Part shown: in pieces, positions 1,212 to 60,753 of the stretch
Layout: the number at the start of each line of letters is the position of its first letter
Position numbering within the stretch: position 1 is the stretch's first letter
Virus record (IMG/VR): IMGVR_UViG_3300032007_000078
Location: 4,118 to 68,117 of that record
Direction: 5' to 3' (one strand)
Length of the DNA stretch: 64,000 nucleotides
DNA from: a virus
Taxonomy: Duplodnaviria > Caudoviricetes
The notes under the pieces: model-generated
The model's input: only the letters and a program-made list of their open reading frames with translations
The model's database searches: none
What the model was told of the DNA's origin: nothing
Program-made: the position numbers and the translations under genes

Positions 1212-4200
1212 TGAATGAAGCAGATAAGTTAAGATAGGAAAGAATTGATATGCCTGGTTCTGAGAAATTTACACGTCCAGAGGAGATTAAAGCTCTTTCT
1301 AAATATCTTGGAGCCATACGAGAGACGATAGATAGTAGTATAGAATTAGAGAGTCAGCTTCTTGGTGTACCTGGGAGAACTACTGGTAAGATTCCTGAGA
1401 TTTCCAAGTTATCAGAGAAGGTAATAGAGAAACCAGATAATCAGAACCAGGAAATAAGTAATTTAGGTAAGAAGAAGGTTAAGGTATCAGATAAAGAAAT
1501 ATCGGTTCCTAAGTTATCTACAAAAAAATTAGGTATTTCTGATCTTAGAGAATTAGGTTTATCTGAGAAAATGTAGAAACTTGAAGGAACATAGGAAGTT
1601 GATTCATTACGTTCAAAGATTCTATAGTTACAAGATACAAGAGATCAAGAATTAAGTAAAACAAGACTGGACCTAGAAGATCAAAGACAAGTCGAGTTAG
1701 AAGAAAAGCGACTTGATATAAAAGATCTTCCTGATATTAGTCTTGAAGATAAAAAACTTGATCTATCTGGTATTAAAGAATCGGAATTATCAGAAAAGCG
1801 CTTAGAAATTCATGACGATAGAAAATACGGCCTCTCAGATAAACGCATAGATATTTCTGATATCCCCGAATCTAAGTTATCCGAGAAGAGATTAGATATT
1901 TCCGACCTACGAGATACAAAGTTAGGAGATAAAAAATTAGAGTTATCCGATGAGAGATAGGTAGAACTTTCAGAGAAGCGTTTAGATATTGAGGCCGAAG
2001 AAATATCGTCATTAGAAAATAAGCGCTTAGATCTCTATGAAATACCTGAGTCTAACCTGAGTGATAAAAAAATATAGATCTCAGATACTAGAGAAACAAG
2101 GCTAAGTGATAAACTTCTGAATCTATTTGATATCCCTGAACCTGAATTATCCGAGAAGAGACTAGATATTTCAGACCTACGAGAAACTGAATTATCTGAA
2201 AAAAGATTAAATATTTCAGACCTACGAGAAACTGAATTATCTGAAAAAAGATTAAATATTTCAGATCTTCGTGAAACTGAATTATCCGAGAAGAGACTAG
2301 ATATAGAAGATACTAGAGATCCTGAATTATCTGAAAAAAGATTAAATATAGAAGATACTAGGGAAACTGAGTTACCTGAAAAAAGACTAGATATTACAGA
2401 CCTTCGAGAAACTGAATTATCCGAGAAAAGATTAGATATTTCCGACCTACGAGAAACAGAGTTACCTGAGAAGAGATTAGATATAGAAGATACTAGAGAT
2501 CCTGAATTATCTGAAAAAAGATTAAATATTTTCGATCTTCGTGAACCTGAATTATCTGAAAAAAGATTAGATATAGAAGATACTAGGGAAACTGAATTAT
2601 CCGAGAAGAGATTAGATATAGAAGATACTAGAGATCCTGAATTATCTGAAAAAAGATTAGATATAGAAGATACTAGGGAAACTGAGTTATCCGAGAAAAG
2701 ATTAGATATTTCAGACCTTCGAGAAACTGAGTTATCTGAGAAGAGATTAGATATAGAAGATACTAGAGATCCTGAACTTTCCGATAAAATAATTTCTCCA
2801 GAAGGTAATTATGTAGATGTCAAGATTTCTAAGACTCTTGATGAAACAGACTAGAATTCTTTAGGTGAAATTAAACTTTCAGATGATCGGGAAATTTAGA
2901 TAGATAAAACTCTAGATGATACAGAAGAACATTCAGAAGGTAGAATTAAGTTTACTGATCTTCGTGAGTATAAGTTAAATAAAACTCTGGAAGATACTGA
3001 AAATAATTCTAAAGGTAAAATAAAACTCTCAGATATTTGGAATCCGACTGAAATTGATGAGACTCTGGAAGATACTGAGGAACATTCTAAGGGTAGAGTA
3101 AAAATTTCGGATACCAGAGAAATTTAGATAGATAAAACTCTAGACAATACAGAAGAACATTCGATAGGAAATATTAAAATTTCTGATACTCGAGAACTTT
3201 CCGAACTTGCTAGTAGTATTAAAGATCTAGGTAAAATTGAAGACACTAGGGAAGATTTAGAATTACCTTAGGATCTTGAAGATACAGAAGAAAATTCTAG
3301 GAGTAAGGTTTTTCTAGATGATACTCGGGGGAATCTAAAACTTGAGGATAATATAGAAGGTCTAACTAATAAAAATCCAGGAGGTGAAATAGAAGAGTTA
3401 CATAATTCTTTAATTGCATAGGTTGAAAATATGCATGGTACTCCTGAAGAACTATATGATTCTCTTATCTAGATGGCATCTGATTATTCTAAATGGTCAG
3501 AACTAGAGGAAGAAGATTATGAGTCTCTAAGGAAATTAACAAATAAACTTTCTGATGATGACTTATATAATGTAGCTATAACAATGGCTTCTTCTGGTGA
3601 AAGAGGTTCTGGTGATGCGTCTAGTTGGTTTTCCAAAGTATCTGCACAAATGTCTTCTTACCTAAGTAGTGCTAATGCTTCTACCGAAAGGCTTAAAGGA
3701 TTTATTGAGGCTTCTTAGAATAATGCAGAGATGGCTATTCAAGGAGCAAAAGCTATAGAACTATCTTCATATAATAATTCAGAGATTACAGAATTAGGTG
3801 ATAAAAAAGTAAATCTAGAATATAATACCTCCAAAACTAATAGTATTTGGGCAAAAGCAGCTGAGTCTACTAGTGGGATGAGTAGTATAACAAGAAGAGA
3901 TGCTATAGATAAGCTGATTATATAGATGCTTGACAATGGTAGAAGAAAAGTTAGTCTACCAGGAAATCTAGTAGATGTCAAAGGCCTTGTAGGAAATGTG
4001 ACTGGATTACTTACTGGAACTGCACAACATCCTAATCCAATAAATCATCCTTTATCTGTTGCTGGAGTAAAACTTCCTGGTGGTCCTGGTGATGCTTTTT
4101 ATCAACCCGCCAATAGTAGAATTTCATTTAATTCACCTCCCGATATTCCTGTATTCTATAATTCTTACTGGAGTTCTGAAAGTTTTAAATCTACATTATA

Positions 4201-26131: not shown

Positions 26132-27017
26132 TGGATTAAGAATTATAACCTCAGATATTCCAGAAAGAGAGAATGAACTTTATATCTCTTCTGAAAATAC
26201 TGAATATTCTTATCTTGCCTATAAAAATGAAGCTGGAAGTATAGTTGGTTTGTTATCTGACGGAAATCAAAAAACTAGACCTATTCATTGTACAGAGATG
26301 AAAAACATGTTAGATCAATGTGGAACTCTAACTGGTGGATTAGTTTTTATGTATCCAATAATAAGAGGAAATGATATTACAAATATTATTCCTCACTATG
26401 CTCCTCCAGTTTTAGGTATTAATTCTGAAATATCTATAATCCCAAGAATCTCACCAAACGAAATTAATCGCTTAGAAGTAAATTCATATACTAGAGCTGG
26501 AGTTAGTAATATAGATCTAGCTACAGTTAATTCTAGTATTAGGTTATGTGATTCTTGGACTACTGATGAAGAATAGGACATTGATGAAAACTATATAACT
26601 CCAATTTATCAGGAACATATAGGTAATAGTGGAAAAGTAATTACCGGACTATCAGGAAATTATAGTTCAGATTTAGAAAATTATTACTCTACTATATCAT
26701 TAATTTCAAATTCTGACTATACCGACACATTAGATATTTCAGGATATATAAAAAATATATAGTTACCTGAGATATCTGGCAAGATTGATATAGGAATCTC
26801 ATACTACAAAGATAATGAGATTTACTTAAGCACAAAGACTTTCAGCGCATTTAATTATTCTTCTCTAAATTATCTGAATATACCTAATTATATAGTAAAC
26901 ATAAATTCAGATATTAGGTTAGAGTATTTAGATGGCGTGATTAAGTTATATTCTCTGAAAAATACAATCTCAGAGTATATTATAAACGATTGTATATTAA
27001 CTTATGGAAATCTCTAA
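26124..27017 (+). CDS. hypothetical virion protein (297 aa, code 15)
   Basis: Reads through 2 TAG to TAA; overlaps the next start. Confidence 0.65.
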
Positions 27018-41814: not shown

Positions 41815-43263
41815 ATGGCTGATTTAAGAATTTTTGTTGAATGTTCAACTAAGGCAGTTTTTGACGCACAGCTCGATGCTGGTAACATTACTAACAGACA
41901 CCTCGTTCTTATTAAGAGCACAAACCAGATTTATCATAATGGTGTTTACTATGGCTTGAGCGCAGCTGATGCTGAGAAGCTTTCTGCCGTTTATAACCGT
42001 AAGGAGTTTGGTTATGTATCTGACGGTACAAATACATACCGTTCTAGCGCTGCCGAAGGTACTCTGACTATTACCGAGAGCTCAGAGACAGGTGAAGTAC
42101 TTGATGTTACCGTTGGTGCTAGCGGTGTTACCATTAAGTTGGTTGCTACTACAGGTACTACCAATGGTACTATCTCTCTGAACGGTACTGAGGTTGCTGT
42201 TGCTGGTCTTGGTAGTGCAGCTTTCACTGAGACAAGTGCTTATGCTACTGCTGCTCAGGGTACCAAGGCTGACAATGCCGTTCCTAATACAAGAACCGTT
42301 AATGGTCATGAACTTAGCGCAGACGTAACTGTTACAAAGGGTGACGTTGGTTTGGGTAATGTTGACAATGAGAGCAAGGCTACAATGTTCACAAGCCCTG
42401 AGTTCACTGGCACACCTATTGCTCCTACCGCAGCTCTTGGTACTAACACAACTCAAATCGCTACCACAGCTTTCGTAAAGGCTGAGATCAACGACGTTCT
42501 GGCTGCTGCCGACGCTCTCGTATTTAAGGGAACTGTTAACACAACTGATGGTCTGCCCGCTAACCACACTCTTGGTTGGACTTACATCGTAGCTGAGGCT
42601 GGTACATATGCTGGTCAAGTTTGCGAAGTTGGTGACATGATCGTTTGTAAGGCTACTGGTACAGTTGCTTCTAATTCTGACTGGACTGTAGTTCAGACAA
42701 ATATCAATGGTGCCGTTACTGGTCCTGCTAGTGCTGTAGATGGCAACGTTGCTATCTTCAATGGTACAACAGGTAAGATCATCGCTGACTCTGGTTTGAC
42801 ACTTGGTAAGAGCGTTCCTTCTACTGGTGTATTCGATGACCACAAGTATACCTTTGCTTCTGGTACAGATGGTAGCTTTACTGTAACTGAAGACGTTGAT
42901 GGTGAGAATTCTTCAACTGGTTCTCCTCAGACTATTTCTATCGGTAAGCCCTCTACCGCTGGCACAGCTGATCAGGTTGGTCACGATCTGTCTATTACCC
43001 TTGGTGCTGCTGGTACAGCTCAGACCTTCGACGGTTCTGCTGACCTGAGCGTTACTGTAACTCCTTCTGCTATTGGTGCAGCCGAGGCTGTTCACACCCA
43101 CTCTGCAGACGAGGTTACTGCTATGGGTACAGTTTCTAATCCTTATAGCAAGCCCAGTTCTGTAGCTGCTGCTATTTCTAATAGCGATAGCCTGCAGACT
43201 GCAATTGGTAAGCTCGAGGCTATGTTTGACTGGGTAGTTTATAACGCTGAACCAGAGCCCTAA
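41815..43263 (+). CDS. tail fibre protein
   Basis: SPEFTGTPIAPTAALGTNTTQIATTAFV fibre repeat, VTKGDVGLGNVDN motif, Ala/Thr/Gly-rich; no TAG. Confidence 0.85.
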   Translation: MADLRIFVECSTKAVFDAQLDAGNITNRHLVLIKSTNQIYHNGVYYGLSAADAEKLSAVYNRKEFGYVSDGTNTYRSSAAEGTLTITESSETGEVLDVTVGASGVTIKLVATTGTTNGTISLNGTEVAVAGLGSAAFTETSAYATAAQGTKADNAVPNTRTVNGHELSADVTVTKGDVGLGNVDNESKATMFTSPEFTGTPIAPTAALGTNTTQIATTAFVKAEINDVLAAADALVFKGTVNTTDGLPANHTLGWTYIVAEAGTYAGQVCEVGDMIVCKATGTVASNSDWTVVQTNINGAVTGPASAVDGNVAIFNGTTGKIIADSGLTLGKSVPSTGVFDDHKYTFASGTDGSFTVTEDVDGENSSTGSPQTISIGKPSTAGTADQVGHDLSITLGAAGTAQTFDGSADLSVTVTPSAIGAAEAVHTHSADEVTAMGTVSNPYSKPSSVAAAISNSDSLQTAIGKLEAMFDWVVYNAEPEP

Positions 43264-43285
43264 ACATTAATTAATTATCTAGAAA

Positions 43286-44674
43286 ATGAAACGATATAGA
43301 TGGTTTATACATAATAGTACTTTTGAAACTGCTCGGCAAAATGGAGAAGTTGGCATTGATGATATTTGTTTCATTCTAGATAAATTAAGAATTTATACAA
43401 GATCTAATAGTTTTACATTTTCAAATCGACCTATATACCAGGGGGAAAATTCCAGTGAAGTAGCTGGTACCTGGACTGCCTCAATTGATGGTATCACAGA
43501 AATCTCAGAAGGATTATCTATTAAAGTAAAAGTAGGACAACTCGCAGCTACTACTTCTTACAATACCCTCAATGTAAACAGTCTAGGTAATCTCCCTGTC
43601 TGGTATAGATATGGAGTACCTCTTACTAAAAGTGATACCCCGGTTCAAGATAATGCAGAACTATTACTGACCTATAGAGCAAATGCTAGTTCCTCCTCTA
43701 TTACGGTAGGCGGAACTAGCTACTCTAGAGGCTGGGTCGTTTCTGGTGCTAATCCTAAATATGGTGAAGGATTAAAAAATACAACAGGAACTATCGAACT
43801 TGATTATGGTAACGTAGACTCGGCGAATACTACTAAACCAGTCACAGGTAAATCTGTTAGAGATGCAATTCCCAGTACAATACTTACTAACGCATCTGTT
43901 TCAGGCACTACCCTGACAATAACACCATCTAGTGGTTCGAATATTATATATTCACACCCGACAAATACAGCAACTACAATTACTACTACAGATGGACATG
44001 CACTTGGTAGTATAACTGTAGATGGACTGGGACACGTTACCTCAGTGGTTGATAAAACATTAGCCGCTACAGATATTCCTAATTTATCTTGGAGTAAAAT
44101 TACATCTGGAACGCCGACTACTATTTCTGGATATGGAATTACAGACGCTAAAATAGAAAGTGGCGCTATAACTATCGGTGCATCTACAATAGGCAATGAA
44201 ACAGCTATTTCCGGAGGCACAACTACTTCTTTAGTAACTACCGGAGAAAAATATACTTGGAATAATAAACAAGGTACTGTCTCAATACTCGGAAGTACTA
44301 CTAAACCAGTATATACCTCAGCTGCCGGAACTTTTTCTGAATGCTCTGATTATGCAGGAGGTACAGCTATTACATTGAATGGAACCTCTAAAGCAGCAGA
44401 TACCGCTTCTTTGTATGCACCTGTTACTTCAGGTACGGCAGGACAAGTTCTTAAATCTTCAGGAACAGGTACTGCACCTTACTGGGATAGCAGCAGCGTT
44501 GTAGCTACTTATACTCATGTTTATACCGCAGTTACTGATACTACTGGTAAAAATCCTGCTTCTGAAGGGTGGTATGAACTTGTAGATGGATCTTATGTAC
44601 TAACAGAAGATACAACTCCAGCATCCGGAAAAACTTATTACATACAAGAATCTTATTACGAGATGACTTTCTAA
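43286..44674 (+). CDS. tail fibre protein
   Basis: WSKITSGTPTTISGYGITDA fibre repeat; Thr/Ser/Gly-rich; no TAG. Confidence 0.8.
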   Translation: MKRYRWFIHNSTFETARQNGEVGIDDICFILDKLRIYTRSNSFTFSNRPIYQGENSSEVAGTWTASIDGITEISEGLSIKVKVGQLAATTSYNTLNVNSLGNLPVWYRYGVPLTKSDTPVQDNAELLLTYRANASSSSITVGGTSYSRGWVVSGANPKYGEGLKNTTGTIELDYGNVDSANTTKPVTGKSVRDAIPSTILTNASVSGTTLTITPSSGSNIIYSHPTNTATTITTTDGHALGSITVDGLGHVTSVVDKTLAATDIPNLSWSKITSGTPTTISGYGITDAKIESGAITIGASTIGNETAISGGTTTSLVTTGEKYTWNNKQGTVSILGSTTKPVYTSAAGTFSECSDYAGGTAITLNGTSKAADTASLYAPVTSGTAGQVLKSSGTGTAPYWDSSSVVATYTHVYTAVTDTTGKNPASEGWYELVDGSYVLTEDTTPASGKTYYIQESYYEMTF

Positions 44675-44766
44675 GTGTAGAGTCCTAAATAAAAATATTG
44701 GAAATACCCGGGGCTCTTCAGATAAGAATATAAACTCTGGGTATCTCCAAATTTATACATTATACT

Positions 44767-46170
44767 ATGTCAGCAATACATAAACTTACTAAGAACGGAA
44801 GCACTATATTTCCCGCCTCAACTACAGATGCTATCGTACATCCTTCTGTAGCAGCTTCCGTTACTGACATGATTAAAGAATATAATGTATCTGAATTATT
44901 TCCTACAGAAGGAATTGATGATGGAACAGTATATACTCTTGATCTAGCTATCTCTGTACTTGGTGCTCATCTCAGAGATTCGGAAAAATGTGGCGGTATA
45001 AAATTAATCTTCCTTGAAAGAACTAAAGATAAGTTTAATACCTATATCTTGGTTAGTTCACAATGGTCAGATGATCCTAATGACTGGAATCAAGTACCTT
45101 CTAGCGTAGTACAAGGTCTTGGAACATCTACCGTTGAAGTAATGTCACAAAACGCAGTTAATGACGCTCTGATCGAATTTAGAGAAGAACTTAATAGAAG
45201 AATTGATGAAATTGAACCAACTATTGTAGAAGGTGACGTTACTAATGCAGCCGATGAGGAAGATCTTACAGATAAAGATTCGGTTCTAAAGTTTAAAGAT
45301 AAAGATTATAATCCCTTAGTATATTCAGGACTTGGACGTGTTTATATTAGGAAAAATATAGTAGATGGAGTAAATCTTCTTACCCAGTCTATGTTCCTCA
45401 AAGAAAATACAGTATACTATATTCAATATGATTATACTGTTGTCGATGTTGGTATACAAATTCCAAGCGGCTGTATACTTAACTTCATAGGTGGTAAACT
45501 ACAAGGCGGACCATTAGTAAGTAATAGCACCATAATAATTGATAGCTATAATACTAAACCTATTGAGAATATCGACATTTACGGATATTTTAAATATTAT
45601 AGTATCTTCGACTGCTATACTAAAGAAGAAATATCCGAATTCATATATAATAAAGAGGAAATCGACCAACTTATAGGATATGTTGTCTCTCTTGATTCTA
45701 AACCTACCAGAGATACACTTACGTTTGTTAATGATAAAGGAGAAACTATCAACTTTAAATTGGGAGATAGAGTGAGAGTTAAAGATACTATCGTAGGACT
45801 CGAAGATACTAATTACTATGTATACTACGAACTCTACGATATCGATAATAATGAAGCCTATTGGAGAATTTACTCACCTGTAGATCTAACTGAAAACGCA
45901 TTCATACACGATACAGGATATGGAAGCTCTGGCACTAAAAAGTATATTACTAGCTACGACAAAACCAATATCTTCCCGTATACTAAAGATGATGCTGTTC
46001 TAGATCAAGATGGGGTAAGTCTTCAAACCAGATATAGAAAACTGGTAAGCACCGATGAAACCTCTTTTAGCGATGCACAAAAATCACAAGCTAGAACTAA
46101 CATCGATGCAGCTAAAAATCCAGAATTCACACAGGTAGAAGGCAAAAGTTATTATGAAGCTAATTTTTAA
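44767..46170 (+). CDS. tail fibre/spike-associated protein
   Basis: VVQGLGTSTVEVMSQNAV and QKSQARTNID motifs that I recall from Bacteroidota phage fibres; no TAG. Confidence 0.7.
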   Translation: MSAIHKLTKNGSTIFPASTTDAIVHPSVAASVTDMIKEYNVSELFPTEGIDDGTVYTLDLAISVLGAHLRDSEKCGGIKLIFLERTKDKFNTYILVSSQWSDDPNDWNQVPSSVVQGLGTSTVEVMSQNAVNDALIEFREELNRRIDEIEPTIVEGDVTNAADEEDLTDKDSVLKFKDKDYNPLVYSGLGRVYIRKNIVDGVNLLTQSMFLKENTVYYIQYDYTVVDVGIQIPSGCILNFIGGKLQGGPLVSNSTIIIDSYNTKPIENIDIYGYFKYYSIFDCYTKEEISEFIYNKEEIDQLIGYVVSLDSKPTRDTLTFVNDKGETINFKLGDRVRVKDTIVGLEDTNYYVYYELYDIDNNEAYWRIYSPVDLTENAFIHDTGYGSSGTKKYITSYDKTNIFPYTKDDAVLDQDGVSLQTRYRKLVSTDETSFSDAQKSQARTNIDAAKNPEFTQVEGKSYYEANF

Positions 46171-46221
46171 AAATATAGTATAGGTAGGATAAAATCTTAC
46201 CTATACTTAAGTAAATAAATT

Positions 46222-46878
46222 ATGGCTTATAACGAAGAACTTATTAAAAAACTGGGGGAAGAAGAAAGAATTGAGAAAAATCCAATATGTATACTAATAG
46301 CTCTACATAAAAAAACTAAACCCTCAGAAAAAATTGCTGTCGAGGTAAGTAAGTTCGGGAAATATAAAAGAAGCTATGCAGTCGATGGTGTAGCTCTTTA
46401 TGATGAACAACTAGGTATTAAACTCCTAATTGCACTGAATGAAGAAAATAAAACCTTCGGAATAGGACCCAACGATATACCAGAAACAGCACCTTCCAGA
46501 CAAAATTATAAAAATCCTACCATGAAAAATCTTGATGGACAATGGAGAACTAATTGGCTTCTGGAACACGAAACACAAATAAATGATGGAGCTGTTATGT
46601 ATTGTAAAACCTACGGAGATAATTATTGGCTTCCTAGCGGCGGAGAAATGTCATATATCCAAAGCTGTAAAAACGAAATAAATGAAGCCCTTAAAAAAGT
46701 AGGAGGAACAATAATAGAAGATGAATACTATTGGACTTCATCTAAATTTAATAACAATTATGCTTGGTCTCTTAATATTGGTACAGGAGAATTCGCTTTC
46801 TGGAAAAGTAAAAAAACTATGATGAAAGTAAGACCTGTAACTACACTCGAAGACTATAAAATCATAAAGGAGGATTAA
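46222..46878 (+). CDS. DUF1566-like C-type-lectin-fold protein
   Basis: WLPSGGEM...YYWTSS...AWSLNI...KVRPV pattern. Confidence 0.7.
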   Translation: MAYNEELIKKLGEEERIEKNPICILIALHKKTKPSEKIAVEVSKFGKYKRSYAVDGVALYDEQLGIKLLIALNEENKTFGIGPNDIPETAPSRQNYKNPTMKNLDGQWRTNWLLEHETQINDGAVMYCKTYGDNYWLPSGGEMSYIQSCKNEINEALKKVGGTIIEDEYYWTSSKFNNNYAWSLNIGTGEFAFWKSKKTMMKVRPVTTLEDYKIIKED

Positions 46879-46881
46879 TTT

Positions 46882-48345
46882 ATGGCAGAACTCGCGAAAA
46901 TTAATGGCTATGATATAAGAGATAAAAAACTAGCCGACGAAGGAACCGTAACGGATGCTGGTTCCACTGACTACGTGCTCCTGGAAGATACTAATGGAAA
47001 TTATCAGAAAATCTCTAAAAGTAACTTCACAGAAGCTATCCGTAATACATTAGGTGAAATCCTGATGACTAATGATAAAGGAACTTCTATTACTAGCGTT
47101 CCTGTGATCTCCGGAGACGGTACTTCACTCGATCCATATGACCTCGGAAGTGCTACAACTGAAAATTTGGCATCAGTTCTGGGCGGAAGTATGTCTGCTG
47201 GAGAGCTTGTAAATATAAGTCTAGTTACAAATCAAAGCTCCTCTTCCTATGATTCTGATTTAATTGGTGCTACTATTACTATTACAGACAACACAGAATC
47301 TACAATTTTACTTAATACAACTTGGGATGGAACAGATATAAGCTTTGAGATACCTGTTCCTGTAAACTATACTATTTCTGTTGGGTCTATTACCGGATAT
47401 AAGACACCTAGTTCTATTACTTATGATTCTAGAACAGGTCGTAATAGAAATTTAGAATTTCAATATTAGACTGAAGTAGTAACTGTTAATTGTTCAGCTA
47501 GCAATGGTTCTTCTGTAGCAGGACAAAAGGTAACAGTTTATGGTACTCAATATACATTAGATGCTACTGGAATAATTACTACAAACATCGCATACAGTAC
47601 TTCTTATTCTGTTATTGCTGGTTCATGGGATGGGTATGATTCTCCTGCTAATTAGACATTTACTGCAGGTCAAACTACAAGATCAGTAAATGTAGTCTGG
47701 AAATATAATCCGATAGCTGTTGATATGGGTCTACCATCTGGAGTAAAATGGGCAAAAATGAATATTGATGTTACTAGACCTAATAAATTTGCAGCGTCAG
47801 AATATCAATATGAATGCAGTTTTTTTAGTTGGGGTAATGTTTAGGGGCATAATCCAACGTCAGAGTCTGCTTTTAGTTATGATTGGGGAACTAGTAATGA
47901 TGGCGCACCTTATGTTTCTACTACAGGACATTCATTAACTGGAGATATTCCAGTAAGTGCAACTTATGATGCAGCTAGAGCAAATTGTGGCGCACCTTGG
48001 CGTATGCCTACTGCTACAGAATTCCAAGAATTAATAGATAATTGTGATTTTATTAATCCAGATGGATCTGTAATTCCTACATCTACAGCTAATAAACTTG
48101 TTACTGTTAATGGTATTGTAGGTATCTATTTAAAATCTAAAAATAATAGTAATAGGTTATTCTTTGCTTGCTCTGGTAGCGGTTACCAGACTTCTTGGAG
48201 CAATCGTACTACCTACGGTAACTACTGGTCTTCCACTCTCTATTCTGCTACTTTTGGTGAGTTCTTGTACTTCTACTCAGGTGGTGTTTATCCTTAGCAC
48301 TACAACGTTCGGTTCCTCGGCTTTACGGTTAGGCCAGTTCAGTAA
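46882..48345 (+). CDS. DGR target: tail fibre tip adhesin with C-terminal CLec (Fibrobacter major paralogous domain-like) fold, 487 aa, 4 TAG
   Basis: AVDMGLPSGVKWA, FFSWG, YDAARANCGAPWRMPTATEFQEL, GNYWSST, VRPVQ; VR at the 3' end. Confidence 0.92.
48159..48342 (+). repeat. DGR variable repeat (VR)
   Basis: Matches TR 49163-49346; encodes FFACSGSGYQTSWSNRTTYGNYWSSTLYSATFGEFLYFYSGGVYPQ(TAG)HYNVRFLGFTVRPVQ. Confidence 0.97.
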
Positions 48346-48377
48346 CTTCCTCTACCAACCTATTAACCACCAAACCA

Positions 48378-48429
48378 AATTTGTGCCACAAACCCGCTCT
48401 CTCAAAGAGCGTGGTACAAGGCACAAATT
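48378..48429. promoter_or_regulatory. hairpin/cruciform downstream of VR (DGR target-recognition element)
   Basis: AATTTGTGCC/GGCACAAATT outer stem with inner CGCTCT-CTCAA-AGAGCG; position matches known DGR homing hairpins. Confidence 0.7.
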
Positions 48430-48461
48430 CTATAAAATTAAATAATAATATATAATAGTAT

Positions 48462-49022
48462 ATGACAATAACAGAAATTATTGACATTGAGAATAATAGA
48501 AAATAGCCAGATCAATTTGGAATTATTCACCTAATAAAAGAAGGTAATTTTTATAGAGCACATGATTGGAGTGCTTGGTTAATGACTACTTTTCCAATAG
48601 GTGAAGCTATTAATACTCCTTTAAAAATATCAGCTAAGAAATTGAAAGATGGTTATGTTGAAGCTTGGGTAGGGTTTCCTGTAACTTCAATATAGAAATA
48701 TATACCTAGTGATGACTCTGTTGTATTTAAACCTATTTCCGAAAATTAGATAGATGTACATATTCCATTACCCGAAGAATATCTATAGTAGAATTTTGAT
48801 AATATTAGAAATTCTATAGATAAATGGAAAAATTAGTTACCTATTTTGGATAATAAGAAATCTAAAAGAGAAGATCATGAAATTTAGGAAATAGGTCCAC
48901 GGATTACTAGGATAACTGACATTGTTGGTAGTATTCTTTCATTTTCTTTGGTAGAATCTTCCCCATTAGATGCTTGGGAATTTATTAGAAAACTATAGAA
49001 ATAGATATCTATATTATTTTAA
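48462..49022 (+). CDS. DGR accessory protein, MutS domain I-like (MSL), 186 aa, 9 TAG; absent from the ORF track
   Basis: IIHLIKEGNFYRAHDWSAWL resembles MutS-I; lies between VR and TR where accessory genes sit; ends TAA. Confidence 0.75.
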
Positions 49023-49162
49023 ATTTAGGTTAGTTCGAAAGGAAGTTCATAGGATATACGTCCTTCACTAATTATAATAAATAGTGCGGGAAAAATTAAA
49101 GATATTAGATGGTTTTATTAAATTAATCCCTTCTTCTTTTCGTAAAAGGATATATCCGAAAG

Positions 49163-49346
49163 ATTCTTTGCTTGCTCTGGTAACGGTAACCAGACTTCTT
49201 GGAACAATCGTACTACGAACGGTAACTACTGGTCTTCCACTCTCAATTCTGCTACTAATGGTAAGAACTTGAACTTCAACTCAGGTGGTGTTAATCCTTA
49301 GAACAACAACAATCGGTTCAACGGCTTAACGGTTAGGCCAGTTCAG
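49163..49346 (+). ncRNA. DGR template repeat (TR)
   Basis: 17 AAY codons plus one AAG and one TAG in the target frame; adenine-specific divergence from VR. Confidence 0.97.
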
Positions 49347-49373
49347 CACTCAACTTCGAACTATTATTGTAAT

Positions 49374-50624
49374 ATGATAATAACCAGAAATTAGTTATTA
49401 ATTGATCTATATTCTGCATATTATGATGCCCGACGCCATAAGACTAAAAGATCTTATGTTAAATAGTGGGAATCAAACTTAAAAGATAATATGGAGAATC
49501 TTTGTGATGAACTATTAAATAGAAACTATAAACCACTTCCATCAAAGTGTTTTATTATAGATTATCCTAAAAAACGTGAAATATTTGCTGCTAGATTTAA
49601 AGATAGAATTGTTCATCATTTATACTTTAATTATACTCATTAGCTATTTGAGAGAACATTTATTTAGGACTCATATAGCTGTATTAAAGAGCGCGGAACT
49701 CATTATGGTATCAATAGAATAACAACTTTCTGCAGAAAAGAATCACAAAATTGGTAGAGAAAGTGTTATGGACTACATCTTGATATTCGTGGCTATTTTA
49801 TGCATATTGTTAGAAATAAACTACTAACAATTGCAATCAATACCTTGAGAAAAATGTCTACACACCGTATCAATAAACATTCCTCAACTCAATGGTAGGA
49901 TATTTTAGATATGAATTTTATATATTGGCTAACAAAAGAAATTATTTCGGTAGATCCTAGAATAAATTGTATTATGTTAGGAAATTTATCTGATTGGGAT
50001 AGTTTAGATCCGGAAAAATCCATGTTAAAACTTAAAGATGGATTAGGATTGCCAATAGGAAATTTAACTTCTCAATTATTTTCTAATGTTTATTTAAATC
50101 CTCTAGATCAATTTATAAAACGTTCATTGAAATGTAAAAATTATGGTAGATATGTAGATGATGCTATTATAATTAGTCATAGTAAATCTTATCTATTAAA
50201 ACAAGTACCTATGATTAAAGATTTCTTAAAGAACGAATTAGGATTGGATTTACACTTAGGAAAATTAAGAATTAGTGAAGTACATAAAGGTATAGAATTT
50301 TTAGGAGTATTTATAAAACCTTATAGAATTTATACTTCGCGAAAAACCCTAAGTCGTATTGAATAGAAATTAGATCTTTTAGATTTTAAAAAGCCATAGA
50401 AAGTTATTAGAAGCGTTAATTCATATTTAGGAATATTTTAGCATACGGCATCATTCAATATTAGACGAAAGCTATTTCTAAAGAAAGAGTATTTAAGGCT
50501 TGGCGTATTTAATGTTGATATGACAAAAATAGTAGATAGAAAATTCTTTTATACATTAAATTCTAAAAATCATGAGAAAAGTATCAGGTCAAATAGACGA
50601 CTTTGCTTATATTAGCGAAGATGA
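49374..50624 (+). CDS. DGR reverse transcriptase (416 aa, 10 TAG)
   Basis: KRE..AA.F.DRIVHH, DSYSCIKERGTH, LDIRGYFMHI, DGR-type GLPIGNLTSQ and RYVDD; only continuous if TAG is sense. Confidence 0.95.
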
Positions 50625-51102
50625 GAGCAGAATTATTATTGGTTATGATTTAAAACAAGTAGAAAAAACCAATATATATGAATGGTATGAAATATATTTT
50701 TACAAGAAATAGATAAACTCTATCAATTTTCAACTTGTAAAAGATGCCATTATTGATGATATAAATATTAGAACAGATTATAATATTCTTACTGGATTCG
50801 TTTGGAAAGATATAAATGTATATCTATCTCCTGAAAACCAAAGAAATTTTTCAGAAGCTCAAAGAATGGCTGAGAAATATGGTGAATCAGTTCTTCCGCT
50901 TAGATTTAAATTAGGAGAGGATGAAAATAAAAATCCTGTATATTATATATTTGAAACTATAGAAGACTTAGATGAGTTTTATAACTTAGCTTTCTCTTAT
51001 ATAAATACTTGTCTTAATGATGGCTGGCAAATTAAAGACACTATAGACTGGGAACCTTACTAGGAGTATTTTCCAGAACCAGAAAATCCAGAATAGGAAT
51101 AA
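50572..51102 (+). CDS. putative tail fibre assembly protein (DUF4376-like), code 15
   Basis: GFVWKDINVYLSPENQRNF...CLNDGWQIKDTIDW pattern; follows the RT; 3 TAG. Confidence 0.6.
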
Positions 51103-51120
51103 TAAATAATTTGATTTTAA

Positions 51121-51149
51121 GGAAACACTAGAGATAGTGTTTCCTTTTT
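51121..51149 (+). terminator. Rho-independent terminator ending the late operon
   Basis: GGAAACACTA-GAGA-TAGTGTTTCC followed by TTTTT. Confidence 0.8.
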
Positions 51150-51360
51150 GTTCTGGGCGAATATTCATCTCTGAAATTATTTGCTATTTAACTATAGTTT
51201 CTTCCAAAAATACTCTTTATATTGTAGTTTGGTACTATGGAATATAGATATGATAGTGTTACTCTTACAATAATAGAACACAATGGAATATTACTAGATG
51301 AATTATAAATAGGGTAACATTATTTATGGGATTATATATTTTTGGTAGTAGGATAAAAAT

Positions 51361-51389
51361 AAGGTAGAACGTTTTAATTGTTCTACCTT
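51361..51389. terminator. hairpin terminator for the convergent minus-strand genes
   Basis: AAGGTAGAAC-GTTTTAATT-GTTCTACCTT flanked by A/T tracts. Confidence 0.65.
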
Positions 51390-51483
51390 TATTTCTTTTT
51401 AATTATAGTACCAATCTCAACTTTTTCAAACGATTCAATATTATTCAATCTAATCGTTTAAACAATTTCAAATTAACAAAACA

Positions 51484-52086
51484 TCATCGTCTTTTTAATT
51501 CACCAATTCGTTTCCCTATCTTCGGAAACCAATCTTCATCTTGAGGGTGCCATAATTCTGGATGACCTTTTATAAACTCAAACATCCACTCTGCTGCGGA
51601 AAGCCAATCTGAAGTAATGTCATCTGGAAGGCAACAAAGCTTAGAATAGTTTGATAATCCGTAATATCCAAACCCATAAAAATGTCTAACCTCTGGATAA
51701 TTTTCTTTCTGATGAGGTTCTAAGTCTACCATTCTTTCAGAGACACGTAGGATCAAAGATATATCCTCGTTCAAGCTACTATAAAGTTTCTTATTATACT
51801 CGATTAAGTTTTCTTCTGTATCCTCTGATCGTAATGCAAATACGGCTGCCTCTAATCTACAAACCACCGTATTCTCTAGTAACTTGTATCTCAGAACTCG
51901 TCCAACTGCTTCCTTTAGTGTCGGAACTTTATCTGGATCCTCGGTAAATAATTCTACTAGCTCTCCATTCTTCCACTCATAACCATTTCCGTTAACACAG
52001 AATAAATGATCATAGGCATCTAGGGCATTTAAAGTAATTCCCGGATATAACAGGAGCATTCGTCTGATAGTATCTTGTACGTTCAT
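51484..52086 (-). CDS. hypothetical protein (200 aa)
   Basis: Coupled to the upstream ORF; no TAG. Confidence 0.75.
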   Translation of the reverse strand: MNVQDTIRRMLLLYPGITLNALDAYDHLFCVNGNGYEWKNGELVELFTEDPDKVPTLKEAVGRVLRYKLLENTVVCRLEAAVFALRSEDTEENLIEYNKKLYSSLNEDISLILRVSERMVDLEPHQKENYPEVRHFYGFGYYGLSNYSKLCCLPDDITSDWLSAAEWMFEFIKGHPELWHPQDEDWFPKIGKRIGELKRR

Positions 52087-52535
52087 ATTATTTTTCCTTC
52101 AAATTCCTCCAGGTAATCAATATTTCTCTGGAGTTTTTTTATACATCCAATCTGATTTCTCTTTTGACGAACTATATACGATCTAACCGAATGTTTCATC
52201 ACTGTCTCGTCGGAAAAGAATCGTATCCTCCTGTATTTCTTTGTACATACTATCTTGGCTCCTTCCGGATATTGGCTTAGTGTTACCTGAAAATCATTAT
52301 CCTTCCACCACCAACATGAATATCTTCTCCAACCAGGTCCTTCTATCGAATAATCTTTAATCAACTCTAGCTCGTATAAGAAGAAATCATTATCCTTCGA
52401 GTTTCTGATCCTTTTTAATTTATACTTTCCGATGTTTGGGTGTTTACTATACTCGACTGCCCATACTAAATCTCCTACACTCAAATCTGTTATCTGTCGA
52501 GGCTCTGGATATCTCTTGTATAGATTATTTCTCAT
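52083..52535 (-). CDS. hypothetical protein (150 aa)
   Basis: Overlapping starts and stops with both neighbours. Confidence 0.75.
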   Translation of the reverse strand: MRNNLYKRYPEPRQITDLSVGDLVWAVEYSKHPNIGKYKLKRIRNSKDNDFFLYELELIKDYSIEGPGWRRYSCWWWKDNDFQVTLSQYPEGAKIVCTKKYRRIRFFSDETVMKHSVRSYIVRQKRNQIGCIKKLQRNIDYLEEFEGKII

Positions 52536-53109
52536 CCTTAAATTGTTTTTCTATGTCTAAAAGGGTTCCGGTTTCCAGTTTTGACCACTTTTCCCACGTC
52601 TCGATGAACCTTGAATTCTTTCCGTTATTCTCTAAGTATCCAACTATCTGCCACTCATTATCGGTTAAGTCTAGGAAAATTGTCAGTGGCTCCTTCCTAG
52701 AATCATACCTTACCTCTGTTCCCAATCTAACTTGCTCGGACTCATTTTTCTTCTTACTATGAGCAACAAAGACGAGATATTTATAGGACATCGATAGGTA
52801 CTTCAAATCAATCTCTACTCGATACGCTTCCTCCGAGACAAGATGTAAAAGACGTATATGAGAATCTTCGACGTTCTTGTTTCCGTAGTATAAAGTATCA
52901 ATCCATTCCCACTCCTTCGAATATACCAGAACCGAAATCTCTAAGGAATCGGATCTTGTAAATATACCTTTCATCGGATCAAATATTTTCTCTTCTCGAT
53001 ACGGGCCGATCCTAAAAATTCTCTGTAGTAGGTTTCCCGTATAAACTTTTCTTGTAATACCTAGATCTAAACTCTTTCTGGTCTCTAAATAAAAATCTAC
53101 TTTCATCAT
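52525..53109 (-). CDS. degenerate TerD-like protein
   Basis: LEISVLVY...IDTLYYGNKNVEDSHIRL...VEIDLKYL...LVFVA follows the TerD pattern but lacks the acidic GDxxxGxxxDDE loop. Confidence 0.45.
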   Translation of the reverse strand: MMKVDFYLETRKSLDLGITRKVYTGNLLQRIFRIGPYREEKIFDPMKGIFTRSDSLEISVLVYSKEWEWIDTLYYGNKNVEDSHIRLLHLVSEEAYRVEIDLKYLSMSYKYLVFVAHSKKKNESEQVRLGTEVRYDSRKEPLTIFLDLTDNEWQIVGYLENNGKNSRFIETWEKWSKLETGTLLDIEKQFKDEK

Positions 53110-53111
53110 CT

Positions 53112-53123
53112 ATAAGGGAAACG
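53112..53123 (-). promoter_or_regulatory. candidate promoter motif CGTTTCCCTTAT (minus strand)
   Basis: Same core, pointing at the 53109 start 2 nt downstream. Confidence 0.4.
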
Positions 53124-53129
53124 ACGGGA

Positions 53130-54092
53130 CCTCAAAACTTTATATATGGAGGAGGATAGGCCAATAATGAAAGATAGTATTTTATAAATAATATTGATGT
53201 TTTGCGGATATCTTAGAGTAGGAAAATAATATGTTAAATTAAAGATTATTATTTTTAGATATTAACCGAAAAGAAAAAGATATCCGATCGTACTAGTTTC
53301 TTAGATACATATCCTCCCAATCCTTAGTGAATCCCCCAACTTCAACGTAGTACTGAGGTCTAGAGCACTAAAGATGTGACTAATCGGGGGCTGAAAAATT
53401 TGATGGGTTAGTAGTTGATGGGAATTATAACCCTGAGAATGAACAACATCTTAAAGTATTGGTATGTCAGGAAGAACCGGATTTATCTAGTTCCTCTCTG
53501 ATGAATTTTTTTTTTGCTCCCACGTTTTAGGTCCCCTTCATAGCGCAGAAGTGAAAACGCCAAGCAGTTAGGAGTTTCCCAGGTTATCCTCTTTTAAGCT
53601 AGGTTTCTGTATATTCTGGAGCGAGACTTGCGAGCGACGAATATAGAAGGGGAATAGCTTAGGTACCGGACATGAACCGACCCCGACCTTACGTTCCTTT
53701 GTCACTCCAGGTCGGGTTCCCTTGTTCTTTCTTGGACAGAAAGAACAAGATACTATAAGTTTTTTAATATTATTTGCCGACGCGAAGCGATCGGCAACAT
53801 ATTATATTTTCCTTGATACCTTAATTTCTGGAGATATATCCTGAGGCTCGGCCGAAGGGATATCGGAAGAAATACTGAGATGAAGTCGGAACTGAGTTTC
53901 ACGAGGTTTCGGCTTTATCGATAGTCAAAGTTTCATTTATTTTTTCCCAAAATTTCTATCAGAATACTTATATTAGGTATATCGATTCTGTTATGTTCAA
54001 ATTGGGAAAATGCTCCTAACTGCACCTGAAACCCTTATCCATGAAATGAACGAGAAAAGGAAACTCGAAACTAACTTAAAATTATTAATATT
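53130..54092. other. about 1-kb structured divergent intergenic region upstream of helicase-like gene 2
   Basis: CTTGTTCTTTCT-TGGAC-AGAAAGAACAAG (53721-53749), TGCCGA-CGCGAAGCG-A-TCGGCA (53775-53796), ATGAAGTCGGAAC/GTTTCGGCTTTAT (53880-53918, 3 G-T pairs), TTCCCAA/TTGGGAA. Confidence 0.75.
54026..54038 (+). promoter_or_regulatory. candidate promoter motif CTGAAACCCTTAT
   Basis: Near-identical to CTGAAATCCTTAT at 61647-61659 (minus strand). Confidence 0.5.
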
Positions 54093-56159
54093 ATGGATAA
54101 GAAAAGATTAGAAATACCTGCTGGAGTTAGGTATATAACAGAATGGGATGGATATAATTTGAATGATTATGCCTTCCCTCATATTTTGAATAAAGTACTT
54201 ACGGGATGTGGATTTACAGAATATTGCTTAAGGAATCAACAGAACATAATTCTCCTAAGCCCTCGTAAGTTCCTCTTAGAAAATAAAGAGGATCAGCATA
54301 AAGAAGATGTACTTTATGTTAAGAATGAATTTGGTGCTATCGTAGATTATGAACGAAATATAAGTGATAGCAGAAAGAAAGGCAAACAGAAAGAGCCGCC
54401 TAAACTTTCAGATGAAGAAATAAAATCCGGTATCTCTAAGATGAAAGGAGATATTCGAGATTATTGTAGGAAGAGATTTTCGGAGGGACGTAAACCTTGT
54501 AAAATCCTGGTAACATATGATTCATTCCGTCACGTCAAGGAAACTTTGCAGGAGATGGGAATTTTTCAGGGATTTCAGGTTGTAGTTGATGAGTTCCAGT
54601 CGATTTTCATAGATTCACGCTTCAAGAGTTCAACGGAGATGGAGCTACTTTACTATCTTAGAGACGTACAGAAGTTATGTTTCGTTTCAGCTACTCCTAT
54701 GTTAGATAAGTACCTAGAAATGTTGGATGAATTTAAAAATCTTCCTTACCTTGAATTTGACTGGATAACAAAAGATCCTGGGAGAGTAAAGAGACCACAA
54801 TTAGAGATTAAGTTTACAAAACGATCTCTTAATGAGGAAGCAGGTCAAGTTATTCAGAACTATAAGAAGGGTAATTTTGAACAGCGCTTAGATTCAGGAA
54901 CAGGAGGTATTATAGAATCTCATGAAGCTGTAATTTTCATGAATTCTGTATCTAATATTTGTCAGGTCATCCGTTCAAATAACTTACATGTTGAAGAGTG
55001 TAATGTACTTTGTGCTCGGACGGAAGAAAACAGCAAAGAGGTAAAGAAAGCATTTAATGAAGTCTTACGAAGAGAAAGTGAGGGATTTGAAAAACCGTTA
55101 AGTCTTCCGAGAGGTTATGATGTTATCGGTAGAATCCCAGGAAGAGGCGAAAAGCATAAGATGTTTACTTTCTGCACTCGAACTGTATATCTCGGAGCGG
55201 ATTTCTATAGTACGAATGCAAGAACCTTTATATTCAGTGATGCTAATATAGAGTGCTTAGCTGTAGATATTGGGATAGATCTGGAGCAAATATTAGGTAG
55301 ACAAAGACTAGATGAGAACCCTTGGAAGAACTCGGCTAACTTATATGTGAAAACTCTGACAGGAAAGAATTCATTTACCAAGGAAGAGTTTGATAATATA
55401 CTAGCCGAAAAAATAAAGAGTACTCAAAATCTCTTGAATGTTTATGAAAAGGGATCTCTAGAAGAAAAGGCAGATTTAGCAAAGAATTATGAGTTTGTAG
55501 CTAAGCATAATTATTACAAGGATGATTATGTTTCTGTCAATCATCACGCAGGAAAGAGTCTTAAACCTGTCTTCAATAATCTAGTTCTTGTATCGGAGAT
55601 GAGAACGTTCGAAGTACAACAGATTGATTATAAGGATAGATTTTCTGTATTTTCAACTTTGCGAGATGAAGGTATGAACTATGAAGATAATAATATTTCT
55701 CAGGTAGTAGAACAATTTAATGAAGTTAAGACAACAACAGAGAAACTTAAATTTTTGGTTAAGTATACTACAGAAACATCAGGAGTAACTGAAAGAGATA
55801 TTAAGACTTTTATTTCAATGATTCCTGGTAAGTATGGAGATTATTATTATCTATTAGGTCCGGACAGAATCAAAGCAAACAGTTATCACGAATCAGAACT
55901 AAGAAAAGAGTGGATAAAAATGCATTCGGAGGTAAAGGTAGAGGATGAAATGATATCAGAAATTTATAGTACTTTTAGTGTATCGAAGAAGTATGGTAAA
56001 TCTGAAATAAAACAAATCCTAAAAGAAATTTATGGGAGATATAATTTTGAAAGAACAGCGAAAGCTTCGGACTTATCAGAATATTTTATTATAAAAGGAA
56101 TTAAACTTTTAGATTCAGGTAAGTGGATCCATGGATTCGAAATATTAGGAAAAAGATAA
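54093..56159 (+). CDS. SF2 helicase-like / origin-binding-protein-like protein, copy 2 (688 aa, no TAG)
   Basis: TGCGFT, VVDEFQSIFIDSRFKS, SATP, MFTFCTRTVYLGADFYS shared with 18465-20513. Confidence 0.75.
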   Translation: MDKKRLEIPAGVRYITEWDGYNLNDYAFPHILNKVLTGCGFTEYCLRNQQNIILLSPRKFLLENKEDQHKEDVLYVKNEFGAIVDYERNISDSRKKGKQKEPPKLSDEEIKSGISKMKGDIRDYCRKRFSEGRKPCKILVTYDSFRHVKETLQEMGIFQGFQVVVDEFQSIFIDSRFKSSTEMELLYYLRDVQKLCFVSATPMLDKYLEMLDEFKNLPYLEFDWITKDPGRVKRPQLEIKFTKRSLNEEAGQVIQNYKKGNFEQRLDSGTGGIIESHEAVIFMNSVSNICQVIRSNNLHVEECNVLCARTEENSKEVKKAFNEVLRRESEGFEKPLSLPRGYDVIGRIPGRGEKHKMFTFCTRTVYLGADFYSTNARTFIFSDANIECLAVDIGIDLEQILGRQRLDENPWKNSANLYVKTLTGKNSFTKEEFDNILAEKIKSTQNLLNVYEKGSLEEKADLAKNYEFVAKHNYYKDDYVSVNHHAGKSLKPVFNNLVLVSEMRTFEVQQIDYKDRFSVFSTLRDEGMNYEDNNISQVVEQFNEVKTTTEKLKFLVKYTTETSGVTERDIKTFISMIPGKYGDYYYLLGPDRIKANSYHESELRKEWIKMHSEVKVEDEMISEIYSTFSVSKKYGKSEIKQILKEIYGRYNFERTAKASDLSEYFIIKGIKLLDSGKWIHGFEILGKR

Positions 56160-57282: not shown

Positions 57283-57305
57283 CTTTCTTTTTAGATTTTC
57301 TTACT

Positions 57306-58808
57306 CTAATACACTCGGGTTAGTCCTAATTTTTCTTGGACTGTTTCGATTCGTTTGATAGTCCAATTATTCGGGTTCTCTAAGATCTTCTCTCCGTCAC
57401 GCATACACCAGAACAATTTTGCTAGTGCTCTTTCGCATGCTTCAGAACGGTTTGCTTCGATACTATAGATATTGTCTGCCTCCGATATTTCCGACGCTAC
57501 TTTAACTGAGAGGTCGGGAAATCTGGATTGTATCTCCGAGAGTGTCATGTGTAAGCGAATAAAGATAGTTTCGGTTATTTTGGACGCCTCATATTTAAAG
57601 TAGAGATCGCCGAGCATAACCTCCGAGCCGATAACTATACCTTCTCGTTCGACTTTCCAGATTCCTCTAAATTGTTTCTCGCCGATCTCTCCTATAAGTT
57701 GTTTAAGTTCGGCGATTCCAAGTTCTGTGAATCTATGTCTCTTTATTCCGTTTTGTATATCGATGTAGCTAAAATACGTACCTCTTTTTGTTTGTCCGGC
57801 TCGATATATTTCCTCGGCCAACAACGCTTTACTCCATCTTGTCTTAGTATTTTCGTAATAAGACGTAGGAGTATCGATTTTGGTGTATGTATTTTTTCCT
57901 ACTACCGGAGATGTCACTATAATTCTGCTTTTTGGTTTTGGCAGGTCTGGTTGTGATTTCTCCAGTACAATTTTCGGTTCCTTCTCTTCCTTTGGTTCTT
58001 CCGGTTTTGGTTTCGGTTTTTCTGCCTCTACCTTTTTCTTAAGTTCCGGATTTTCGATAAGAGAGAAAACGTCGCTAATTTTTGAGTCCAGTATTCCCAG
58101 ATCGCCCTTGAAGGTTACTGTTTTCTTTAGTACCACTTCAATCGGGTCTTTCATATCCAGGAACTGTGTACAAACTGCATTAGCTTCTTGATATATAGTA
58201 TACTGAGTTCCGCCGCAAGCTCTCTGATTTTTCCAGCCATTCTTTTTCTTGATTTCCATTATAAGTTTGGCTTCACATTTTCCAGAGTGTTCTTTCAGTG
58301 CTCCCAGTAAGTAATAAGTCTTCAAGAGAGCCTCATCATCTGGGAAGCTCTTCTTTTTCTTGATTTTGATGGATGTTCCTGTTTCCTCTGGTCGTACTTC
58401 TTCAGGGATATAGTATTTCTCGTAATCCTTTTTCTTTGGTACTTCCGGTTTAGGTTCCATCTTTTTTCCTGTCTTCGCGTAATAAACGATCTCTTCCACC
58501 GTTACATTTGGTTTTTTGGTATAGAATCGATCTTTCCCCGCAAATCTAATGTTAACAAAATCTCGTACTCTTTTCTCGAAGCTCTTGAGGAGTAATCCAA
58601 AAGACACTTCGTTAGTTTTGTACTGTTTTGCACCTTTCAATCCTGCCACGGAATTTACGGTTTTCACCAACATGACGGGATTAATTTCCTTAGTCCAATC
58701 CAGCGTTTCGACTAGTTTCGTAAAGTCGACTTGCTCTTCCGGGTTGAACGTAATTTCTTTTCTCTTGTCCATTTTTGTTTTGTTTTTTTTATCGTTAAAA
58801 TACTTCAT
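57306..58808 (-). CDS. hypothetical protein (about 500 aa; alternative start 58772); ends in TAG
   Basis: Long Lys/Glu-rich ORF with no internal TAG; PKPEEPKEEKEPK linker; TAA lies 5 codons after the TAG. Confidence 0.8.
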   Translation of the reverse strand: MKYFNDKKNKTKMDKRKEITFNPEEQVDFTKLVETLDWTKEINPVMLVKTVNSVAGLKGAKQYKTNEVSFGLLLKSFEKRVRDFVNIRFAGKDRFYTKKPNVTVEEIVYYAKTGKKMEPKPEVPKKKDYEKYYIPEEVRPEETGTSIKIKKKKSFPDDEALLKTYYLLGALKEHSGKCEAKLIMEIKKKNGWKNQRACGGTQYTIYQEANAVCTQFLDMKDPIEVVLKKTVTFKGDLGILDSKISDVFSLIENPELKKKVEAEKPKPKPEEPKEEKEPKIVLEKSQPDLPKPKSRIIVTSPVVGKNTYTKIDTPTSYYENTKTRWSKALLAEEIYRAGQTKRGTYFSYIDIQNGIKRHRFTELGIAELKQLIGEIGEKQFRGIWKVEREGIVIGSEVMLGDLYFKYEASKITETIFIRLHMTLSEIQSRFPDLSVKVASEISEADNIYSIEANRSEACERALAKLFWCMRDGEKILENPNNWTIKRIETVQEKLGLTRVY

Positions 58809-60488: not shown

Positions 60489-60540
60489 AATTCATTCCTT
60501 TCTTTTTTGTTTGTTAATACTTTTTATGTCGCCAGGGAGT

Positions 60541-60753
60541 TTATGTTGCTTCTCCCCTAATGGTTTCCTTAAATGCTCCGTACAAGAAAAGTATCGGAGA
60601 CAGGAGTACTATTACTGTCGATATAAAGACCGTCAGTATATAATTCAAGTAACTCTGGCGATATCCCTTTCTGAACATCACCGTAAACTCTGGGTGTACT
60701 ATCAATGTTATCAGGACTAGCAACACCCACACTAATGTAATTATAAGTTCCAT
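60541..60753 (-). CDS. small two-TM membrane protein (MELII paralogue B)
   Basis: Hydrophobic; A-rich leader AAAACAAAAATAAACAAACT. Confidence 0.65.
   Translation of the reverse strand: MELIITLVWVLLVLITLIVHPEFTVMFRKGYRQSYLNYILTVFISTVIVLLSPILFLYGAFKETIRGEAT

Follow-up and report, generated by a model that had tools for sequence, protein, structure and literature searches.

Diversity-generating retroelements (DGRs) whose genes are interrupted by multiple amber codons have already been published. The code-15 crAss-like persisters I57/I79/I123_PsAC1 carry DGRs with multiply amber-interrupted reverse transcriptases (RTs), recoded tail targets and variable repeats (VRs) that change over time (Lou et al, 2023; 10.1101/2023.08.07.552389), and recoded DGR RTs have also been published for zeta crAss-like phages (2025; PMC12386605). 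Here, we analyse a DGR cassette located in a stretch of 64,000 nucleotides (the window), which spans positions 4,118 to 68,117 of the IMG/VR virus record IMGVR_UViG_3300032007_000078. Taken together, the evidence makes it very probable that the cassette, placed distally in a tail-fibre operon, is an authentic DGR, intact and active at present, of a phage that reads TAG as glutamine, and that a cassette of a standard-code family was amberised here secondarily and is now amber-dependent. The biology itself is no new principle; what is new is the polarity of the amberisation, the adaptation at the level of the template, the predicted fold of the accessory protein, the covarying hairpin behind the VR and the fact that the RT and accessory genes carry the highest TAG load on the contig.

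The window cassette resembles the recoded crAss-like DGRs in that an RT gene with several TAGs adjoins a recoded tail target with the VR at its 3′ end, in the natural change of the VR and in the decoding of TAG as Gln. It differs from them in its phage, which is of rumen type, and in its RT, whose identity to crAss RTs is about 31%. Their cassettes have either no accessory protein or an Avd, whereas the window cassette contains both an accessory gene, whose product is predicted to resemble MutS domain I, and a DUF4376-like gene. Moreover, about 60 standard-code homologues allow its amberisation to be polarised, and its template repeat (TR) holds a TAG and an AAG codon. One further candidate for a recoded RT, in the crAss-like record MW067003, was rejected: an unannotated RT is present there, but in standard code.

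With the DGR of the Bordetella phage BPP-1 (mtd-avd-TR-brt), the window shares an adenine-specific flow of information from TR to VR, an AAY-rich template, a hairpin downstream of the VR and a GxxxSQ-type RT motif. In BPP-1, the VR occupies the C-terminus of a receptor-binding protein with a lectin fold, and weak matches below cut-off hint at the same for the window target. Unlike BPP-1, the window cassette is without Avd, carries an acidic accessory protein with predicted likeness to MutS domain I, begins its hairpin about 35 nt past the target stop codon and uses TAG as Gln instead of the standard code.

Genetic code, cassette structure and natural variation

Across the whole 68,117-bp record, coverage by open reading frames (ORFs) of at least 100 aa rises from 57% under code 11 to 91% when TAG is read as Gln, and the alternative recodings perform less well (61% for TGA=W, 69% for TAA=Q). 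The record contains 158 in-frame TAGs, and 40 of its 63 ORFs have at least one. When the four cassette proteins were aligned with 23–27 standard-code homologues, more than 10 TAG sites had Gln opposite them in 26–91% of the relatives, compared to a Gln background of 3–5%; examples are RT codons 7, 90, 98, 128 and 356, accessory codons 96, 142 and 181, target codon 472 and codon 47 of the downstream gene. Opposite the other cassette TAGs stand Lys, Glu, Trp, Ser, Arg and similar residues, many of which have codons one step away from TAG. On the basis of coding coverage and Gln alignment, translation of TAG as glutamine by this phage is well supported.

Once TAG is read in this way, the cassette consists of four abutting plus-strand ORFs, and its parts follow one another in the order target with VR, hairpin, accessory gene, TR, RT and DUF4376-like gene; under table 11, the same region yields only gene fragments. 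The 1,265 codons of the four genes include 26 TAGs, and no TAA or TGA interrupts the frames. The features are as follows (positions in the window):

46882–48345, plus strand: DGR target gene, 487 aa, the last in a run of tail-fibre genes, with 4 TAGs
48159–48342, plus strand: VR, target codons 427–487, identified by repeat comparison
48295–48297, plus strand: in-frame TAG for Gln472, within the VR and mirrored in the TR at 49299–49301
48378–48429, plus strand: composite GC-rich hairpin, located past the target stop and ahead of the accessory gene, kept in the cassette family
48462–49022, plus strand: accessory gene, 186 aa, N-terminus MutS-domain-I-like by predicted fold, with 9 TAGs
49163–49346, plus strand: TR, with 51 adenines
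49374–50624, plus strand: DGR RT, 416 aa, with 10 TAGs and intact GxxxSQ and YVDD motifs
50572–51102, plus strand: downstream gene, 176 aa, DUF4376-like, phrog_19239, overlapping the 3′ end of the RT gene, with 3 TAGs
51119–51146, plus strand: terminator-like hairpin with a T-run, after the last cassette gene

The two 184-nt repeats are the sole direct-repeat family in the 44–53 kb region and are 89% identical. At 20 of the 21 mismatches between them, it is the downstream copy that carries A (14 A>T, 4 A>G and 2 A>C), which identifies this copy as the TR and the upstream copy as the VR; the remaining mismatch is a synonymous C/G difference. The VR ends one codon short of the TAA stop of the target gene.

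The RT ORF was originally listed as opening at a TTG inside the TR; the true start codon is the ATG at position 49374. Its TAGs begin at codon 7, and Gln is otherwise encoded by five CAA and no CAG codons. Read-through of TAG is needed for the RT to match PF00078 (6e-12) and phrog_1423 (3e-85). Its IGNLTSQ and YVDD motifs do not vary across the RT alignment, in which more than 160 invariant columns are kept, and its identity to the RTs of many DGR-bearing phages is 31–36%. In the accessory gene, TAG accounts for 9 of the 10 Gln codons, the first at codon 15, and the target TAGs lie at codons 196, 258, 321 and 472. The first-pass annotation, made from the sequence alone, had described the locus as a complete DGR; its repeat pair, its count of adenine mismatches and its TAG counts for RT, accessory and target genes were all confirmed, and the RT motifs on which its reading depended are intact under TAG=Gln. 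Chance is far from explaining the locus, as the bias towards adenine, the homologous cassettes at about 80 retrieved loci and the natural variation of the VR agree with one another.

Two Gln sites in the catalytic region of the RT, codons 234 (Q of GxxxSQ) and 246 (Q of DQF), are invariant Gln in 27/27 relatives and both are CAA here, while four less strictly conserved Gln sites are TAG. In these small numbers, the distribution suggests imperfect suppression.

A large protein collection contains the exact target protein and also four full-length variants that come from other assemblies. The variants are 94–95% identical overall, and some lie on contigs of 141,514 and 156,891 bp. Variation is concentrated in the TR-adenine codons (A at position 1 or 2), of which 23/29 are variable, compared to 7/426 positions before the VR (Fisher p = 2e-27); the sole further variable VR codon is a TTA, with A at position 3. 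Codon 472 (TAG) corresponds to Gln in 4/4 variants, and codon 460 (AAG) to Lys or Glu. An absence of VR variation had been named beforehand as an outcome that would speak against the first reading of the locus; instead, the VR is strongly variable among natural, near-identical phages. These sequence comparisons show a DGR that is active in nature, and hence that the TAG-laden RT and accessory proteins function.

One sequence, P0138 (a Logan contig of 3,714 bp), was excluded from the variation count, and the four remaining ones were compared. P0138 switches inside the VR to the exact TR-encoded sequence and continues into residues encoded past the TR. The most likely cause is that the assembler jumped from one repeat to the other; a true VR/TR recombinant would be the less probable alternative.

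The fragmentation of the genes under table 11 could also mean that RT and accessory gene are stop-riddled pseudogenes and that the TR/VR differences are fossil. We consider such a dead relic extremely improbable and rejected it. A decaying locus is difficult to reconcile with 26 TAGs against no TAA or TGA, with the retention of all RT motifs and invariant columns, with the alignment of TAG with Gln, or with a VR that is hypervariable at exactly the TR-adenine codons among near-identical natural genomes. As an active DGR, the element would work through an RT that copies TR RNA with adenine-specific errors, and the resulting cDNA would replace the terminal 61 codons of the target, presumably a receptor-binding protein of lectin type. 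The four cassette proteins need amber suppression, so the element can run only while TAG=Gln translation is in force.

The source is a large rumen-type phage, of whose genome, at least 157 kb in size, the record is a fragment. A megablast search with 24 kb against a phage collection gave no match, and an exact 30-mer of the TR flank was absent from viral contigs.

Origin of the amber codons and the question of a lock

Relatives of the cassette, found with the RT and with an alignment of the accessory protein, comprise 28 viral-contig and 53 metagenome loci, about 60 of which are distinct. Common to them are the C-terminal domain of the target, the accessory gene, TR, RT and usually the downstream gene, and their flanks are unrelated. 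All are standard-code and have a GC content of 40–59%, with two stray in-frame TAGs in the cassette genes across all loci. The RT and accessory genes of the window have a GC content of 0.28, the lowest on the contig. In 39 distinct TR/VR pairs of the relatives, mismatches fall nearly all at TR adenines; together with the pattern in the window, this indicates that the family is active in both codes.

In the RT tree, the window sequence is nested among 42 standard-code RTs, in a clade with 96% SH-aLRT support, which argues that its amber codons are derived and were acquired secondarily. Its sister is the RT of locus L034, with 72% identity, and its terminal branch is 2.3 times longer (0.56 versus 0.24). 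We therefore picture a standard-code cassette that settled in a recoded, AT-rich lineage. It would then have gained its 26 ambers, through CAG>TAG where Gln is conserved and through single-step changes at sites of Lys, Glu, Trp, Ser and Arg; the template would at the same time have lost the usual avoidance of TAG-producing codons. The last TAG of the RT gene, at codon 414 (50613–50624), stands at the position of a TAG stop in the relative L002 and is followed here by two more codons and a TGA. It provides an example of a former amber stop turned sense, and fits derived amberisation.

The first-pass annotation had proposed that receptor diversification is genetically locked to the recoded phase and that the cassette could not move intact into standard-code genomes. 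The lock stands in so far as the cassette proteins cannot be made in the standard code, where the RT stops at codon 7 and the accessory protein at codon 15. It is not specific to the DGR, as 40/63 ORFs contain TAG, and the ambers are secondary. The barrier to transfer is trivially true of this copy. Standard-code relatives of the cassette are equally adenine-mutagenised. Judging from these comparisons, the code dependence appears to be generic to the phage and not built into the cassette. A late-phase timing of the DGR would follow by analogy from the general hypothesis for recoded phages, according to which the code switches late in infection; metaproteomics of other phages detected code-15 peptides in structural proteins, and proteins of the fraction in which intracellular phage proteins of early infection were expected yielded none (PMC9523058).

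Several results weigh against the reading of a secondarily amberised DGR in a TAG=Gln phage. First, a tRNA search of the 68,117-bp record found none, including a suppressor with anticodon CUA, and no release-factor or other code-switch gene was found on the contig, for which CheckV gives a completeness of 18%. Second, the RT tree was a quick search, and the pairing of the window with L034 has 87% support. Third, the TAG share of Gln codons is 90% in the accessory gene and 67% in the RT gene, ranks 1 and 2 on the contig, compared to 22% elsewhere, and the excess is significant both for RT plus accessory gene (p = 3.5e-8) and for the whole cassette (p = 4.6e-6) versus the rest. Pure drift would not obviously lead to this excess, which leaves room for selection. 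We nevertheless rate drift as the likelier cause, because these genes are the most AT-rich, the RT sits on a long branch and TAG-bearing genes are reported to evolve faster (Lou et al, 2023).

Selection could have acted if the ambers of RT and accessory gene were favoured as a gate or throttle on the mutagenic enzyme, with hypermutation starting after the suppressor is expressed, alongside progeny genome synthesis. The top ranks of these two genes would fit such an adaptive lock, as would the position of their first ambers, which makes a partial product impossible, and the proteomic support for the late-switch model in other phages (PMC9523058). The retention of CAA at RT Q234 and Q246, with TAG at four other conserved Gln sites, also fits, if imperfect suppression is tolerated at non-critical sites. 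We still regard selection for a lock as somewhat unlikely. The same dependence extends to 40/63 ORFs, the cassettes of the roughly 60 relatives work without any amber, and the lowest GC on the contig together with the long branch makes fast, AT-driven evolution a sufficient cause, in line with the report that TAG-bearing genes simply evolve faster (Lou et al, 2023; 10.1101/2023.08.07.552389). Furthermore, the four tail-fibre genes directly upstream, which are late by function, contain no TAG.

Alternatively, TAG might be read as Gln all through infection, either through immediate expression of a suppressor or because the host tolerates or decodes TAG. In that case, the DGR would face no tighter restriction than its counterpart in a phage of standard code. 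In agreement with this, no switch and no tRNA are visible on the contig, and the motif WWYCCTTAT, a candidate phage promoter, is not enriched in the whole window (13 occurrences versus 15.4 expected from shuffles). An absence of any temporal gate is quite improbable, however, given that 23 of the 63 ORFs, helicase-like genes among them, are TAG-free, a two-class pattern typical of recoded phages, and given the distribution of code-15 peptides in other phages described above (PMC9523058). The secondarily amberised, amber-dependent DGR remains the reading that we prefer.

Template design, accessory proteins and surroundings

Read in the VR frame, the TR contains 15 AAY codons, one AAG (49263–49265) and one TAG (49299–49301). 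In code 11, this TAG would terminate translation and the AAG could mutate to a stop, whereas under TAG=Q no TR codon yields TAA or TGA. The presence of TAG and AAG in a template that has no route to TAA or TGA suggests that the amber constraint has been lifted and the ochre and opal constraints kept. Among the TRs of 39 relatives, a TAG codon occurs in none, AAG in one and TAA in one short, possibly mis-framed alignment; compared to these, the combination of TAG and AAG is found in the TR of the window only. The residue aligned with target codon 472 is Gln in 16/24 relatives. The codon pattern of the TR is independent evidence that the target is translated while TAG is sense.

A more far-reaching interpretation is that the template exploits the new code, as TAG (with Gln, Leu, Ser or Trp as outcomes) and AAG give residues beyond those of the stop-safe AAY design, and that the extreme amber loading of RT and accessory gene was selected to couple hypermutation to the recoded phase, in the manner of a translational gate or a limit on dosage. 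We hold this to be rather unlikely. If true, this would be the first DGR whose template design rules shifted along with the genetic code.

The C-terminal part of the target, about 210 aa (residues 278–487), is 44–67% identical to the targets of related cassettes. Pfam matches below cut-offs, to Fib_succ_major (E 7.5e-4) and to Lcl_C, are both weak and hint at a lectin-like C-terminal domain; the target is presumed to act in receptor binding.

At least 966 homologues (cluster representatives) make up the family of the accessory protein, which has no Pfam domain and whose invariant motifs include FYRAHDWSAW and VGFP. The window protein is acidic (pI 5.6), with an alpha/beta N-domain, and its AF2 model has a pLDDT of 82. 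Sequence searches against Pfam, PHROGs and PDB profiles gave no match. In a fold comparison (VIA), residues 1–95 align with MutS residues 12–112 over 79–82 residues with a root-mean-square deviation of 3.0 and a Z-score of 6.1, which is below 8; MutS/MSH entries occupy all of the first 34 rows, the next unrelated one follows at a Z of 3.6, and Foldseek reaches an E-value of 0.02 only. The comparison of models thus lends moderate support to a MutS-domain-I-like N-terminus, and with it to the MutS likeness proposed in the first-pass annotation. Previous work recognised a class of accessory proteins, MSL, by similarity to the MutS fold and reported avd in every MSL cassette (Wu et al, 2018; PMC5758913). 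Compared by description only, the window protein resembles this class in being small, non-basic and MutS-like in fold, and differs from it in that no avd was found in its cassette: neither the accessory nor the downstream ORF matches the Pfam Avd family at E ≤ 5, and the cassette contains no Avd-like ORF, Avd being a basic four-helix bundle. As many DGRs are without Avd (PMC5758913), its absence does not exclude membership among the DGRs.

The product of the downstream gene is likewise acidic and alpha/beta, with a confident model (pLDDT 93.8). Foldseek returned no informative structural match for it, and a wide VIA search gave generic helical matches with Z of at most 5.2. Its homologues (L002–L079) follow and overlap the RT in most cassettes of the family. 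With a pI of 4.3–5.1 and 162–208 aa, this family resembles, by description only, the CH1 accessory class, whose members are acidic (pI about 4.7), 160–169 aa long and without a motif (PMC5758913). The gene may therefore encode a further DGR accessory protein, with properties like CH1, or a fibre chaperone.

The hairpin behind the VR has a DNA fold z-score of -6.3. Its architecture recurs in 18 relatives, with compensatory changes in 9/14 pairs, which is the pattern of a conserved, covarying structured element of the cassette, as predicted from the alignment. An Rfam search of positions 46000–54200, which include this hairpin, gave no match. Scans for sigma-70 promoters and terminators were at chance level overall, and only the hairpin after the cassette was used from them; it likely marks the end of the transcription unit. 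The genes upstream of the target match tail-fibre PHROGs, and the cassette is presumably co-transcribed with this fibre operon.

Two observations concern TAG usage outside the cassette. Four consecutive genes directly upstream (41815–46878), two of which match tail-fibre PHROGs, have no TAG in 36 Gln codons, and the GC content of the 42–44 kb stretch is 43%, compared to about 32% elsewhere. These genes resemble standard-code fibre modules of recent import, unlike the fully amberised DGR that adjoins them. In several otherwise TAG-free ORFs (57291–58808 and 26393–26581 on the minus strand, 60511–60735 on the plus strand), the sole TAG lies in the last few codons, which is compatible with TAG as the real stop of early-type genes.

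For the detection of DGRs, the locus means that pipelines based on code 11 will miss elements of this kind. The many standard-code relatives allow each amber to be traced to its ancestral codon, and the cassette offers a compact system for the late-switch hypothesis. More generally, it indicates that entry into a recoded genome is open to a mobile hypermutation cassette, which can turn wholly code-dependent there and stay functional; such an entry then looks like a one-way step.

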